In this document: piece after piece, positions 18,181 through 19,113 of the stretch
Position numbering within the stretch: the stretch's first letter is position 1
Layout of the letters: each line of letters opens with the position of its first letter
From: a bacterium
GTDB lineage: Bacteria > Patescibacteriota > Kazan-3B-28
Length of the DNA stretch: 34,957 bases
Assembly (NCBI GenBank): GCA_043801895.1
Contig: JAZDLM010000006.1
Span: forward strand, 1 to 34,957
Reading direction: 5' to 3'
Position numbers and translations under genes: made by a program
Notes under the pieces: generated by a model
Seen by the model: the letters and a program-made list of their open reading frames with translations, nothing else
Told to the model about the DNA's origin: nothing
Database searches by the model: none

Positions 18181-18239
18181 GGGCGAGGCGAAGAACCGGA
18201 TGATCGCCTAGAGCGACCGTATGCCACATTGCCTCGCCC
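18181..18239 (+). repeat. Array module 1
   Basis: Edge GGGCGAGGC/GCCTCGCCC; gaagaaccggat; inner 18202-18218; gtatgccacatt. Confidence 0.65.
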
Positions 18240-18278
18240 CTCTTTCTTAGTTGTTAATTGATAAATTAACAGTTGAGA

Positions 18279-18328
18279 GAGAGCGATTACACACATGCGC
18301 TAAACAGCGCGAATACCAAAATGCTCTC
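18279..18328 (+). repeat. Array module 2
   Basis: Edge GAGAGC/GCTCTC; gattacacacat; inner GCGCT-aaac-AGCGC; gaataccaaaat. Confidence 0.65.
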
Positions 18329-18385
18329 CGGCAAGGCGGTTTTAGTACTGGCCCAGCTAAGGTCGTGTATACCATTGCCTTGCCG
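18329..18385 (+). repeat. Array module 3
   Basis: Edge CGGCAAGGC/GCCTTGCCG; ggttttagtact; inner GGCC-cagctaa-GGTC; gtgtataccatt. Confidence 0.65.
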
Positions 18386-18420
18386 CTCTCTCTCGGGTAT
18401 CCAATTTGCTTGGATGTTCG

Positions 18421-18479
18421 AGAAAGGGCGAGCACGTGATTGCGTTGGGTTAACTAGCGCGGAGAGCCCCATGCCCTCT
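18421..18479 (+). repeat. Array module 4
   Basis: Edge AGA(aa)GGGC/GCCCTCT, bulged and the weakest edge; gagcacgtgatt; inner 18442-18460; ggagagccccat. Confidence 0.5.
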
Positions 18480-18480
18480 G

Positions 18481-18533
18481 GCCGAGCGGATAACACCTTG
18501 GCGGCGTTGCCGTCGATGCGGTTGCCGCTCGGC
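18481..18533 (+). repeat. Array module 5
   Basis: Edge GCCGAGCGG/CCGCTCGGC; ataacaccttgg; inner CGGC-gtt-GCCG; tcgatgcggttg. Confidence 0.65.
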
Positions 18534-18574
18534 CTCTCTCGCTGGTTGCGAAAATCTAACTTAGCAGTCAACGA

Positions 18575-18632
18575 GAGGGCGCGTCCACTCGTATGCATCT
18601 TCCCAAGGATGCGGGGTTACAACTGCGCTCTC
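18575..18632 (+). repeat. Array module 6
   Basis: Edge GAGGGCGC/GCGCTCTC with one G.U; gtccactcgtat; inner GCATC-ttcccaag-GATGC; ggggttacaact. Confidence 0.65.
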
Positions 18633-18635
18633 GAC

Positions 18636-18693
18636 GGGCGAGGCGAATCAGGTACTGACCACTTATGTGGCCGTCAGGAGCCATGCCTCGCCC
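18636..18693 (+). repeat. Array module 7
   Basis: Edge GGGCGAGGC/GCCTCGCCC, identical to module 1; gaatcaggtact; inner 18657-18672; gtcaggagccat. Confidence 0.65.
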
Positions 18694-18733
18694 CCTCTCT
18701 TGAGAAATTGATTTGAATCATCGATTTTTCCAG

Positions 18734-18785
18734 AGAGGCGCGGTGGCCAAAATGCTCAACTGAGCGATTGACGAGTTGCGCTTCT
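18734..18785 (+). repeat. Array module 8 (minimal, 36 nt between edges)
   Basis: Edge AGAGGCGC/GCGCTTCT with one G.U; ggtggccaaaat; inner GCTC-aact-GAGC; gattgacgagtt. Confidence 0.7.
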
Positions 18786-18789
18786 ATCC

Positions 18790-18853
18790 GGGGTAAGTCG
18801 AAAGAGCTTCTGGTCCCTGTTTACAGGGATCGATTGTAATCGTGGCTTACCCC
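18790..18853 (+). repeat. Array module 9
   Basis: Edge GGGGTAAG/CTTACCCC; 13 nt tcgaaagagcttc; inner 18811-18832 (TCCCTG-ttta-CAGGGA core); 13 nt attgtaatcgtgg. Confidence 0.6.
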
Positions 18854-18892
18854 CTTCTCTAGAGCGGCGGATTTAGGGGTCGGCTCCTCTAG

Positions 18893-18944
18893 AGAAGCGC
18901 GAGTACATTGCTGCTCAGCCGAGCGAAGGTAATAATGCGCTTCT
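18893..18944 (+). repeat. Array module 10 (minimal, 36 nt between edges)
   Basis: Edge AGAAGCGC/GCGCTTCT; gagtacattgct; inner GCTC-agcc-GAGC; gaaggtaataat. Confidence 0.7.
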
Positions 18945-18956
18945 AATCAGGCCCCA

Positions 18957-19007
18957 TGCGGCGAACTCCGTCATGCTTCAACTCGAAGCGCTGAGAGCAG
19001 TGCCGCA
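18957..19007 (+). repeat. Array module 11
   Basis: Edge TGCGGC/GCCGCA; gaactccgtcat; inner GCTTC-aactc-GAAGC; gctgagagcagt. Confidence 0.65.
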
Positions 19008-19024
19008 ATTGAGGGCTGTTAACC

Positions 19025-19089
19025 GGAGCGGGATGATTACCAAGGTGCCTTGCCGATTGGGCAGAGCGAAGAGTTTGTTATCCCGCTCC
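19025..19089 (+). repeat. Array module 12
   Basis: Edge GGAGCGGGA/TCCCGCTCC; tgattaccaagg; inner 19046-19068; aagagtttgtta. It is followed by CTCTTTTTTC. Confidence 0.6.
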
Positions 19090-19113
19090 CTCTTTTTTCA
19101 TTACAATTAAGCC

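Follow-up and report, generated by a model that had tools for sequence, protein, structure and literature searches.

The 34,957-nt stretch of DNA analyzed here (the window) very probably carries a stem-loop TIGR guide-RNA array beside the gene for a TIGR-associated protein, TasR. The locus consists of one gene, tasR (16972-18144), flanked by 14 tigRNA units, two upstream and twelve downstream, all on the tas strand. In GenBank the gene is labeled only "MAG: transposase," and the array is unannotated. The system is chromosomal and of the stem-loop TIGR-Tas type, and its host is a bacterium resembling candidate division Kazan (Patescibacteria/CPR). The best matches of DnaB (72 to 78% identity) come from candidate division Kazan and Patescibacteria, as do those of TruB. 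The surroundings form a conserved cell-wall/truB neighborhood; the closest relatives lack the tas locus at the syntenic site, and relatives carry truB without tas or modules.

Systems of this kind were published in 2025 and 2026, and the locus is a further example rather than a new kind. Stem-loop arrays with box C/D motifs and paired spacers that address opposite strands were described by Faure et al. in 2025 (PMC12045711), where the CPR TasR clade was first noted. Its dead RuvC domain, hairpin loops, CUU processing motif, and repression are treated in Xu 2026 (bioRxiv 10.64898/2026.09.09.750476). A sequence-only reading of this DNA had implied novelty, which does not survive these two reports of CPR stem-loop TIGR arrays with hairpin loops. 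With architecture, clade, and likely repressor function all published already, nothing categorically new comes from the locus. Its value is that of a well-resolved reference, a clean and complete chromosomal stem-loop TIGR-Tas example with 14 guides in a Kazan-like CPR host, with exact unit boundaries, box C as CGA, box D as UG, guides of 9+9 nt, and regular linker hairpins.

Anatomy of the array

The 12 hairpin modules that the sequence-only reading delineated at 18181-19089 are real, with small boundary changes for D4 (core 18425-18477) and D5 (18480-18534) only. All follow one plan: an edge stem ending in C, a G-N10-U segment, a G...C hairpin, a second G-N10-U segment, and the other half of the edge stem, beginning with G. 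That reading had given 12/12-nt segments for 11 modules and 13/13 for the one at 18790. The fixed geometry stands, and the module at 18790, like that at 18480, becomes 12/12 when re-parsed on the conserved junction nucleotides, as is then every downstream module. Its inventory was right for the twelve downstream modules and missed two upstream modules and five linker hairpins.

Units are written below as edge stem, segment, loop, segment, and edge stem, and all lie on the + strand. The upstream module U1 (16688-16755) reads AGCTATGC, GCAGAATGCAAT, a 28-nt loop with a 10-bp hairpin, GGGTCCGGAATT, and GCATAGCT. In a pattern scan, U1 matches the junction motif at 8/8 positions and has an 8-bp edge stem without mismatch; the MFE fold supports it. 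Covariance model R1, trained on the modules of the window alone, did not pick U1 up, probably owing to the long loop. U2 (16766-16831) reads GAGGGCGGAC, GCTAGCGTTGTT, a 22-nt loop, GGACTGGGCCTT, and GTCCGCCCTT, followed by a U run to 16836; R1, whose training set includes U2 itself, scores it at 30.7 bits. Before both lies a GC-rich hairpin (16624-16669, + strand), found in the MFE fold of 16550-16845 and weakly matched by the covariance model at 16628-16665 (15.6 bits, E = 0.15); it may be a module that has degenerated or a hairpin of the linker type, an uncertain assignment.

Downstream of tasR, D1 (A-type, 18181-18239) reads GGGCGAGGC, GAAGAACCGGAT, a 17-nt loop, GTATGCCACATT, and GCCTCGCCC, then CUCU. 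Linker hairpin 1 (18240-18283; 20 bp, base CUCU:GAGAG) overlaps with its 3' arm the 5' stem of D2 (B-type, 18279-18328), which reads GAGAGC, GATTACACACAT, a 14-nt loop, GAATACCAAAAT, and GCTCTC. D3 (A-type, 18329-18385) has CGGCAAGGC, GGTTTTAGTACT, a 15-nt loop, GTGTATACCATT, and GCCTTGCCG, then CUCUCUCUC, and is followed by linker hairpin 2 (18386-18430). D4 (B-type) has AGGGC, GAGCACGTGATT, a 19-nt loop, GGAGAGCCCCAT, and GCCCT, then CU. D5 (A-type), with GGCCGAGC, GGATAACACCTT, a 15-nt loop, GATGCGGTTGCC, and GCTCGGCC, then UCUCUC, contains the sole segment ending in C; linker hairpin 3 (18536-18577) comes after it. D6 (B-type, 18575-18632) has GAGGGCGC, GTCCACTCGTAT, an 18-nt loop, GGGGTTACAACT, and GCGCTCTC.

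D7 (A-type, 18636-18693) shares its edge stem with D1 and differs in spacers and loop. Beyond linker hairpin 4 (18694-18738) lies D8 (B-type, 18734-18785), reading AGAGGCGC, GGTGGCCAAAAT, GCTCAACTGAGC, GATTGACGAGTT, and GCGCTTCT. D9 (A-type, 18790-18853) reads GGGGTAAGTC, GAAAGAGCTTCT, a 20-nt loop, GATTGTAATCGT, and GGCTTACCCC, then CUUCUCU; it is 12/12 with U.G and C-G pairs counted in the stem GGGGTAAGTC/GGCTTACCCC, which has one U.G pair. Linker hairpin 5 (18854-18897) leads to D10 (B-type, 18893-18944), a paralogue of D8 with unrelated spacers. D11 (18957-19007) has TGCGGC, GAACTCCGTCAT, a 15-nt loop, GCTGAGAGCAGT, and GCCGCA and is the only downstream module without CUCU at the 3' base. 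D12 (19025-19099) has GGAGCGGGAT, GATTACCAAGGT, a 21-nt loop, GAAGAGTTTGTT, and ATCCCGCTCC, plus CUCUUUUUUC.

A-type and B-type units alternate strictly, and a structured linker hairpin of 40 to 45 nt follows every A-type unit. The linker hairpins are regular (17 to 20 bp, CUCU:GAGAG base). B-A module pairs abut directly.

Within the downstream modules, G is first in 24/24 segments and T is last, then G, in 23/24. Counting all 14 units, segments start with G in 28/28 cases, after a closing C (U in the first segment of D12), and end in U in 27/28, before G (A in the second segment of D12). Loops of 12 to 28 nt close at their own ends with an invariant G-C pair. Edge stems are 5 to 10 bp long; all six aligned edge pairs change on both sides, with 98.7% of cells paired, and for edge and inner stems together the figure is 96.5%, compared with 64.6% in shuffles and 32 to 45% in controls with a slid alignment. 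Cells changed on both sides number 36 versus 9.5 in shuffles, and 0/500 shuffles reach 36, in line with the co-variation of edge stems noted earlier. The claim that modules with shared stems differ in their 12-mers likewise holds, for D1/D7 and D8/D10 have stems in common and unrelated spacers. A motif-plus-geometry scan of 18145-19113 returned 11 module positions, versus a mean of 0.07 and a maximum of 1 in 300 dinucleotide shuffles.

Folding energies are -437.3 kcal/mol for the + strand (z = -9.0) and -381.6 for the - strand (z = -7.1), a difference of 56 kcal/mol in favor of the former; G.U pairs make up 11/182 helix pairs. The lack of CRISPR-type direct repeats reported earlier was borne out: TRF found no tandem direct repeats, and a general repeat search gave one weak 16-nt two-copy family only, whereas a CRISPR array has direct repeats of 25 to 40 nt between its spacers.

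Instead, the region might have no function, or be structured DNA of a generic sort (for example, REP-like palindromes, stacked terminators, or a coding sequence in decay), and neighbor a transposase-like gene by chance. Rfam gave no match for the region, and a 147-aa TTG ORF (18273-18716) overlaps it; that ORF, however, has no Pfam match. Next to no probability attaches to this explanation in view of the fixed 12/12 geometry and conserved junction nucleotides in 14/14 units, the stem covariation, the strand-specific recurrence beside homologues in dozens of loci, and a hypervariability between strains that is confined to spacers.

Each unit contains box C (C-G-A) and box D (U-G) twice, in pseudo-symmetric positions. 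In the family logo, each "12-mer" comprises G-A (the remainder of box C), a 9-nt variable spacer, and U (box D): position 1 is G in 100% (a nucleotide demanded by the scan), position 2 is A in 73% and 63%, positions 3 to 11 are uniform, and position 12 is T in 94 to 95% (a scored motif position). The guides are therefore 9+9 nt and not 12+12 nt as the sequence-only reading had it. That reading also connected the 12+12+12 span of D8 and D10 with 36-nt RNAs; the span is coincidental and should not be equated with the 36-nt tigRNAs that dual-repeat arrays yield, and the processing to ~36 nt that it envisaged belongs to the dual-repeat type, not the stem-loop type.

TasR and its relatives

The gene tasR (+ strand; AGGAG 8 nt before ATG) encodes a 390-aa protein whose N-terminal part has a RuvC-like fold and is followed by a coiled coil and, at the C terminus, a Nop-like domain. 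TasR passes the NCBIfam model TIGR_Tas_endo (NF052498) with 125.5 bits (cutoff, 100) over residues 159-364, as do the relatives P0002, P0005, P0010, and P0035, and stays below the cutoffs of the IS110 model NF033542 (51.3 bits; cutoff, 140) and of NF051857 (10.4 bits; cutoff, 180). Foldseek with an AlphaFold (AF2) model (pLDDT 88, pTM 0.84) placed the TIGR-TasR structure 9MTY first (E = 7e-13, 380 columns), then IS621/ISCro4, TasH, and Nop5. The profile of the family alignment, A1, also matches 9MTY (E = 5.8e-31). The family has 207 representatives at E ≤ 1e-30, and identity of TasR to any database relative is at most 44%.

An IS110-family origin would make TasR an RNA-guided recombinase, the modules bridge RNAs with target and donor loops, and the locus a mobile element. 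We consider this extremely improbable, even though the protein matches Pfam Transposase_20, bears the GenBank name "transposase," and has IS621 and ISCro4 as second-best structural matches, since the IS110 model fails where the Tas model passes, the beta1 DEDD position lacks an acidic residue, and no serine occurs in the stretch aligning with the Ser-Gly region of IS621. The abutting B-A module pairs resemble a two-loop RNA and the locus is missing at the syntenic site of relatives; against this, there are 14 tandem units rather than one bridge RNA, no second copy of the element occurs in the window, and the combination of gene and array is found again in many unrelated contexts, where the spacers are hypervariable.

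We compared 82 loci encoding TasR relatives (29 to 43% identity), 83 sources being scanned in all. On the tas strand the module plan was counted 569 times, versus 15 times on the other, which, with the more stable + fold, agrees with the + strand reading proposed earlier. At least 3 modules were found in 59/83 sources; in the other 24/83, fewer than 3 modules of the motif lie within 3 kb of tas, and the plan is thus common, not universal. R1 gave 67 matches at E ≤ 0.01 in the 82 loci, every one on the tas strand, and so upheld the suggested co-occurrence with homologues of the 390-aa protein. [quoted passage not shown] Checks that could have overturned the sequence-only reading turned out in its favor: homologous loci keep the 12/12 geometry, stems co-vary, and related strains differ in spacers rather than in stems.

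The ATG of truB, which encodes the bacterial relative of Cbf5, lies 14 nt downstream of the array end. The modules could accordingly be imagined to guide RNA modification, box C/D-like or H/ACA-like and perhaps via TruB, with a dead-RuvC TasR as a Nop5-like scaffold; their stem, internal loop, and hairpin resemble a pseudouridylation pocket, and Nop5 is among the fold matches. Faure et al. have speculated that the CPR dead-RuvC clade could be an intermediate towards snoRNP-like systems (PMC12045711). This alternative nevertheless appears very improbable to us. The gene truB is beside tas in 0 of the 82 other loci and occurs in relatives without tas or modules, and module 3' ends are CUCU with no ACA box. 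RTGATGA, the DNA form of the K-turn box C (RUGAUGA), is absent throughout 16521-19113, fibrillarin-like or L7Ae-like genes were not identified among the window ORFs scanned, and a related protein, CsTasR, is a DNA binder that represses transcription.

The sequence-only reading had pointed to a guide-RNA-like array and named TIGR-Tas, box C/D sRNAs, and IS110 bridge RNAs as precedents, leaving the choice open. The evidence picks TIGR-Tas, of the stem-loop array type, because TIGR_Tas_endo is passed and the IS110 model failed, 9MTY is the best structural match, and modules co-occur on the same strand with homologues in dozens of metagenomic loci.

The predicted N-terminal order of TasR is RNase H-like (beta1-3/alpha/beta4/alpha/beta5 in the AF2 model), and RuvC/MOC1 fold matches are weak. 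No Asp or Glu occurs in residues 1-29, the stretch spanning beta1 to beta3. In the protein alignment, Ile8 takes the expected place of the beta1 catalytic Asp; in A1 it aligns with the Arg of the family GIRHR motif, which would correspond to R8 of CsTasR. By sequence, the N-terminal domain is not alignable residue by residue to that of TaTasR (D11), and the tentative call of a dead RuvC is based on the missing beta1 acidic residue, A1, and the published statement on CsTasR R8. TasR probably cannot cut DNA, and given the lack of an acidic residue at the beta1 aspartate position, RNA-guided DNA binding without cleavage is its most likely mode.

Quite improbable, in our estimate, is a TIGR-Tas system with an active nuclease TasR that cleaves targets in defense or in competition between mobile genetic elements. 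The NCBIfam name "RNA-guided endonuclease" and the RuvC-like N-terminal fold would suit it, and E37, D62, and D114, invariant or nearly so in A1, could in principle form a non-canonical site. Residues 1-29 nevertheless hold no carboxylate, and D11A abolishes cleavage by TaTasR (PMC12045711). PateTasR and CsTasR showed no cleavage in vitro, and RuvC inactivation is generalized to stem-loop-binding Tas proteins in Xu 2026 (10.64898/2026.09.09.750476). Past its last helix, TasR ends in a tail (residues 369-390) that contains no His and shows no conservation in A1; dual-repeat systems have a Y/H processing loop at the C terminus, which TasR lacks.

Proposed mode of action and spacer replacement

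Anatomy, covariation, strand, the family and fold of the protein, and co-occurrence across loci are shown by the analysis above; for the Kazan-like locus, we infer transcription units, processing, DNA binding, and repression as follows. A promoter-like site (TTGACA-16-TATCCT, 16521-16548, + strand; 10/12 matches in a consensus scan) just past the stop of the upstream gene is a candidate promoter of the two-module mini-array, and U2 with its U run, overlapping a terminator-like site (16808-16827 plus a T run), would form a terminator-like end. The two upstream units would thus have a promoter-like site and a U run of their own. A second promoter-like site (TTGACA-18-TATGCT, 16864-16893, + strand), found by the same kind of scan upstream of tasR, is the probable promoter of tasR and the downstream array. 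The scan found no + strand promoter-like site between 18144 and 19100; hence the twelve downstream units are probably co-transcribed with tasR. The 3' end of D12 may serve as a terminator-like end of the array.

All downstream modules but D11 (11/12) have CUCU or CUUCU at the stem base or within a few nt on its 3' side; CUU is present in U1 and U2, and CTCT is 7-fold enriched in the array. A host RNase would probably release units near CUCU/CUUCU at the 3' stem base, and the 17- to 20-bp linker hairpins between alternate units may help in this release, speculatively as RNase III substrates. In each unit, a private, co-varying edge stem would close an internal loop with two guide strands, bounded by the closing C-G pair of the edge stem on one side and by the 12- to 28-nt G...C hairpin on the other. 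A TasR dimer would grip both box C/D junctions, as the solved TasR and TasA complexes suggest. Two adjacent 9-nt stretches on opposite DNA strands would be paired, one with spacer A and the other with spacer B, so that the target would read 5'-spacerA + revcomp(spacerB)-3'. With Ile8 at the presumed beta1 Asp position and no acidic residue in 1-29, the complex should bind without cutting and may serve in multiplexed, RNA-guided DNA binding or in transcriptional repression, as CsTasR does.

No spacer target was found in the 35-kb contig, where no spacer pair matches elsewhere, and database matches to the spacer 18-mers are at chance level only. Between related strains, spacer columns are 38.9% identical versus 96.9% for stems; spacers change and stems stay. 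At other loci, units in the same position in related strains have spacers that are either near-identical (16-18/18 positions, 75 pairs) or unrelated (2-8/18, 21 pairs), with none between, and their stems and flanks stay 86 to 97% identical. It is tempting to regard the array as the substrate of an active spacer-replacement process of a novel kind, an idea that we hold to be rather unlikely. If true, targeted in-place rewriting of both 9-mers, rather than recombination between units, would bear on how TIGR arrays acquire guides. The linker hairpins could be part of spacer replacement or of an RNase III-type maturation. Descriptions of structured linkers or of all-or-none spacer replacement were not found in the accessible parts of the published TIGR-Tas work, and the structured linker hairpins and wholesale replacement between strains may be new observations. 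The locus is thus an entry point to two questions of the field, the maturation of stem-loop tigRNAs and the exchange of spacers.

Comparison with known systems

The closest likeness is to CsTasR and PateTasR, which share with the Kazan-like TasR a CPR host, a RuvC-like N-terminal domain that probably lacks the first catalytic carboxylate, and a C-terminal tail without His and so without a Y/H processing dyad. [quoted passage not shown] The proteins differ in size (390 aa versus 329 aa for PateTasR and 547 aa for CsTasR), and box C is C-G-A, compared with a reported CUU in PateTasR and CCA in TaTasR; details of recognition may therefore differ. Strict A/B alternation with structured linkers is found in the Kazan-like array, whereas the Xu and Faure papers tabulate linker length only. 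CsTasR, from "Candidatus Staskawiczbacteria," has been shown experimentally to bind DNA and repress transcription (10.64898/2026.09.09.750476).

The PlTasA stem-loop array from a Peromyscus leucopus gut metagenome also has tandem stem-loop units and dual spacers flanked by box C/D, and its units give unit-sized RNAs that direct a nuclease-free binding to DNA (Faure et al. 2025, Fig. 7, PMC12045711; Guan et al., bioRxiv 10.64898/2026.08.11.744272). It differs in that TasA lacks a RuvC-like domain, arrays are split into subarrays, and loops are mostly short. The Kazan-like TasR is matched best, in sequence as well as in fold, by the dual-repeat TaTasR (PDB 9MTY). The tandem spacers of TaTasR address opposite DNA strands and a symmetric dimer binds its box C/D junctions, both as proposed for the Kazan-like system; its 8- to 12-nt edge and loop repeats, 36-nt tigRNAs, and Y/H loop are absent from the Kazan-like locus, as probably is its active RuvC (D11).

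Further removed are IS110/IS621 elements, with a homologous RuvC-like domain, coiled coil, and Nop-like RNA binding and with guides in internal loops of extended helices. They have one bridge RNA with target and donor loops, DEDD and Ser catalysis, and mobility, whereas the Kazan-like locus has 14 independent dual-spacer units and probably lacks the catalytic residues. Archaeal and eukaryotic box C/D s(no)RNPs resemble it in having two guides per RNA, box C-like and D-like bounds, and a Nop-domain dimer, but their K-turn boxes have no counterpart here, and the targets of characterized Tas proteins are DNA, not RNA.

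Hairpin modules on both sides of tasR

The 969 nt from the stop codon of tasR (a 390-aa ORF, 16972-18144, + strand; stop at 18144) to the truB start codon (ATG at 19114) contain 12 hairpin modules, D1 to D12 (18181-19089), all of them present as a sequence-only reading of the region had described. When re-parsed on the nucleotides conserved at the helix junctions, the 12 modules fit a single plan, consisting of a 5' edge stem with a final C (U in D12), a first 12-nt segment bounded by an initial G and a final U, an inner hairpin (12 to 21 nt, G first and C last), another 12-nt segment bounded in the same way as the first, and a 3' edge stem with an initial G (A in D12). 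The initial G is found in 24 of 24 segments and the final T in 23 of 24. The 12/12 geometry previously assigned to 11 modules stands, and the 13/13 assigned to the module at 18790 becomes 12/12 when one U.G and one C-G pair are assigned to its edge stem; the 18480 module, whose stem is GGCCGAGC/GCTCGGCC, has this geometry too.

A scan for junction motif plus geometry returned 11 module positions in the downstream region, compared with a mean of 0.07 and a maximum of 1 in 300 dinucleotide shuffles. Without the junction motif, geometry alone separates poorly (25 positions versus 16.3 in shuffles, with similar counts at all segment lengths); the specificity of the module signal comes from the junction nucleotides. 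In the anchored module alignment 96.5% of the cells are paired (64.6% in shuffles; 32 to 45% in slid-register controls), and two-sided changes affect 36 cells versus 9.5 in shuffles, a level reached by 0 of 500 shuffles. The edge stems thus co-vary, as had been claimed. The proposed reading of the RNA from the + strand was also borne out, since this strand folds 56 kcal/mol better (−437.3 kcal/mol, z −9.0) than the − strand (−381.6, z −7.1); G.U pairs account for 11 of the 182 helix pairs. D1 and D7 have stems in common and so do D8 and D10, with spacers not shared in either pair. Tandem Repeats Finder detected no arrays or tandem direct repeats in the window, consistent with the stated lack of CRISPR-type direct repeats; this is expected because the units have structure, not sequence, in common.

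Rfam gave no match at the gathering threshold. Its sole match at E≤1, to RAGATH-25 (19.5 bits versus a gathering score of 49, E 0.14), lies on the minus strand at 16917-16963 over a hairpin in the tasR 5' leader and is probably due to chance. A 147-aa TTG ORF overlapping the array region matched no family. Searched against the window, a covariance model built only from 13 window modules (R1) found the training modules and two weak matches only. Two isolated, weak module-like matches elsewhere are probably chance as well, namely one inside dnaB (32660-32712; R1 19.5 bits, E 0.013) and a pattern-scan match with G.U-rich stems inside an ABC transporter gene (4203-4253).

The system has 14 units, not the 12 originally described, as two modules upstream of tasR had been overlooked. 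On the same strand as tasR, U1 (16688-16755) matches the junction motif at 8/8 positions, its 8-bp edge stem is perfectly paired and its 28-nt loop contains a 10-bp hairpin, and U2 (16766-16831, or to 16836 with its U run) has a 10-bp edge stem followed by a terminator-like U run. A GC-rich hairpin at 16624-16669 (GGCGGGGC...GCCCCGCC) is a weak covariance-model match (15.6 bits) without the 12/12 plan; it could be a module that has degenerated, or a hairpin of the linker type. Promoter-like consensus sites are located on the + strand before U1 and U2 (16521-16548) and before tasR (16864-16893). Judging from these sites, there may be two transcription units, one reaching from 16864 across the array as far as the stem and U run of D12, the other lying upstream, between 16521 and the stem and U run of U2.

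Equally overlooked were five linker hairpins of 40 to 45 nt and 17 to 20 bp in the downstream array, at 18240-18283, 18386-18430, 18536-18577, 18694-18738 and 18854-18897 (all + strand), each with a CUCU:GAGAG base. One linker hairpin follows every A-type module, in strict alternation with abutting B-A module pairs. A-type modules have a private GC-rich stem followed by CUCU and the linker hairpin, and B-type modules come after the linker hairpin and have their own stem, GAGAG..GC/GC..CUCU; the gap from a B-type to the next A-type module is 0 to 4 nt (12 nt before D11). The 3' base of 11 of the 12 downstream modules carries CUCU or CUUCU, and CTCT and GAGAG are 7-fold and 10-fold more frequent in the array than elsewhere in the window.

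A TasR protein labeled as a transposase

The tasR product is named "MAG: transposase [bacterium]" in GenBank (MFH0905167.1), and the arrays are probably unannotated in the record. Pfam recognizes only Transposase_20 in the protein. It passes the NCBIfam model NF052498, "TIGR-Tas system RNA-guided endonuclease" (125.5 bits, cutoff 100), as do four relatives tested, and fails the IS110 model (51.3 bits, cutoff 140). The public label is misleading because the protein passes TIGR_Tas_endo and fails IS110 models. An IS110 element with bridge RNAs was considered for this locus; it is opposed by the failed family model, by the catalytic residues, which are wanting, and by the presence of 14 independent units, which such an element does not fit.

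The sole significant PDB sequence match is 9MTY, identified as TIGR-TasR by Foldseek. In an AlphaFold2 model made from 30 relatives (pLDDT 88, pTM 0.84), the N-terminal domain is an RNase H-like β/α fold, a pair of long helices forms a coiled coil, and the C-terminal domain is helical. The best Foldseek match of the protein is TasR 9MTY (E 7e-13 over 380 aligned columns); IS621/ISCro4 recombinases, TasH and archaeal Nop5 come next. A protein look-up for homologues with the Tas protein returned only the query itself, and the family emerged from an exhaustive HMMER search, which retrieved 698 relatives (207 with E≤1e-30), at most 44% identical. A look-up of the TasR protein and its motifs in the Faure 2025 supplement, covering part of Table S1, gave no match.

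It is unlikely that TasR is an active nuclease. The stretch covering the first three strands (residues 1-29) is free of Asp and Glu, and the β1 Asp of TaTasR, D11, is essential for cleavage (PMC12045711). Sequence and profile alignments of the N-terminal domain to TaTasR at residue level covered only the coiled coil and the C-terminal domain. Ile8 is aligned to the Arg of the family motif GIRHR, which probably corresponds to the residue given as R8 in inactive CsTasR. The C-terminal tail has no His, so it cannot hold the Y/H processing dyad known from dual-repeat systems. Xu et al. 2026 (bioRxiv 10.64898/2026.09.09.750476) likewise describe a missing Y/H processing loop, and in the CPR TasR clade the loop of the array units carries a hairpin.

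Modules and spacers across tas loci

We collected 82 loci encoding TasR relatives of 29 to 43% identity, 81 from genome and metagenome scans and 1 from a look-up. On the tas strand the pattern scan gave 595 raw 12/12 matches, compared with 177 for the next length combination and about 20 for opposite-strand combinations; with overlaps removed, 569 modules are on the tas strand versus 15 on the other. [quoted passage not shown] In these 82 loci R1 matched 67 times at E≤0.01, always on the tas strand. The module plan is common, not universal, among tas loci: in ~24 of the 83 sources, including L004, L007, L008, L036, L045, L048, L065, L070, L077 and L081, no more than two CGA/UG modules with the 12/12 plan were counted within 3 kb of the gene, and these sources may use other box motifs, carry arrays further off, or have none.

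Structured linkers are also common family-wide (111 inter-module gaps of 25 to 90 nt, median fold z −3.4). The linker hairpins are conserved (CCACTGTTTTG...CAAAACAGTGG) in L001 (CAYJVQ010000092.1), a 2581-nt contig binned as "uncultured Gammaproteobacteria" that has a Tas relative (38% identity) and 9 modules; either this contig is mis-binned, or the stem-loop TIGR type is present outside CPR.

The guides had been taken to be 12 nt long. A family logo of 491 distinct modules has G at position 1 (demanded by the scan), A at position 2 in 73% of the first segments and 63% of the second, uniform variability at positions 3 to 11, and T at position 12, a motif position scored by the scan, in 94 to 95%. 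Each "12-mer" therefore splits into G-A, left over from box C, a spacer of 9 nt and a final U belonging to box D, and the guides are 9+9 nt.

Spacer turnover was seen between the related strains L003 and L009, whose arrays are alignable (regions 2340-2620 and 3880-4290 of L003 were compared). Spacer columns are 38.9% identical (42/108), compared with 96.9% for stems, 88.9% for junction nucleotides, 75% for loops and 86.4% for all else, the opposite of invariant 12-mers with drifting stems. At matching positions in all locus pairs (stems at least 15/16 and upstream flank at least 24/30 identical), spacer identity is bimodal, with 75 pairs at 16-18/18, 21 pairs at 2-8/18 and none between. Both spacers, and often the loop too, thus appear to be replaced wholesale in place within conserved scaffolds. 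Some retained modules have compensatory stem changes (e.g., GCGGGGC/GCCCCGC versus GTGGGAC/GTCCCGC). Two other strain sets, L035/L037/L043/L069 and L055/L056/L058/L068, also have spacer turnover. Donors for the replaced spacers were sought up to 3 kb from related arrays, but 9-mers proved too noisy for interpretation. Generic palindromes or decayed coding sequence, the latter already named as an alternative by the sequence-only reading, are excluded by the module controls, the comparative co-occurrence and the behavior of spacers between strains.

Genomic setting, predicted targets and comparison with known TIGR-Tas systems

Because truB adjoins the array, box C/D-like or H/ACA-like RNA-modification guides were also considered, the latter serving the adjacent TruB. 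This reading is contradicted by synteny, as truB is not near tas in the 82 loci, by relatives that carry truB without tas or modules, and by the lack of a RUGAUGA box and an ACA box. The three closest relatives (L085, L086 and L087) have no tas gene or module upstream of truB, in a neighborhood that is otherwise kept: L085 has the gene order of the window (truB, Germane, minus-strand gene, murD, ftsW), and the shorter contigs L086 and L087 cover only the first three. The mraY-truB distance is about 15.8 kb in the window (3333-19114) versus about 1.7 kb in L085 which, together with the tas-less relatives, places the tas locus in a lineage-specific insertion. Other genes in the window include dnaX, dnaB and a dcw cell-wall cluster. 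The nearest matches of its DnaB and TruB are proteins of candidate division Kazan and Patescibacteria, and the host therefore fits a stem-loop TIGR-Tas of the CPR type.

The complex may act as follows, by analogy with complexes of relatives that have been solved or assayed. The two box C/D junctions would be bound by a TasR dimer, with spacer A paired to one strand of the DNA and spacer B to the neighboring 9 nt on the opposite strand. Because TaTasR cuts leave an 8-nt 3' overhang (PMC12045711), the target would be 5'-spacerA + revcomp(spacerB)-3'; for D1 the predicted target in this form, spacerA(9) + revcomp(spacerB)(9), is AGAACCGGA-ATGTGGCAT. Since TasR has no β1 carboxylate, it would probably bind DNA without cutting, as a multiplexed DNA binder or repressor. 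[quoted passage not shown] 2026, bioRxiv 10.64898/2026.09.09.750476).

A search for self-targets in the 35-kb window (both spacer orders, up to 4 mismatches) gave only chance-level matches and the array itself. In IMG/VR, exact 18-mers with a 0- to 2-nt gap gave 0, 2 and 0 matches for D1, D7 and D4, about the chance rate by a rough estimate of the collection size, and the one IMG/VR contig examined had no convincing second spacer match. Short spacers are known to yield many false positives (Xu et al. 2026, bioRxiv 10.64898/2026.09.09.750476).

The proposed guide-RNA array thus resolves, by protein model, fold and co-occurrence, to a TIGR-Tas locus, and every feature fits the stem-loop TIGR array type. 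As a further example of an already described kind of system labeled only as a transposase in GenBank, the locus itself is of moderate to low interest. The structured linkers and the all-or-none spacer replacement are by-products that may deserve follow-up: the TIGR papers tabulate linker length only, and we found neither regular structured linkers nor such replacement inside conserved scaffolds described there. A CPR clade of TasR with an inactive RuvC is associated with stem arrays (Faure et al., PMC12045711), and 2,559 stem-loop arrays have been catalogued (Xu et al. 2026, bioRxiv 10.64898/2026.09.09.750476). In the same study, neither PateTasR nor CsTasR cleaved DNA, and CsTasR repressed transcription. 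The 9+9 guide nucleotides correspond to the same 18-bp specificity as that reported for CsTasR.
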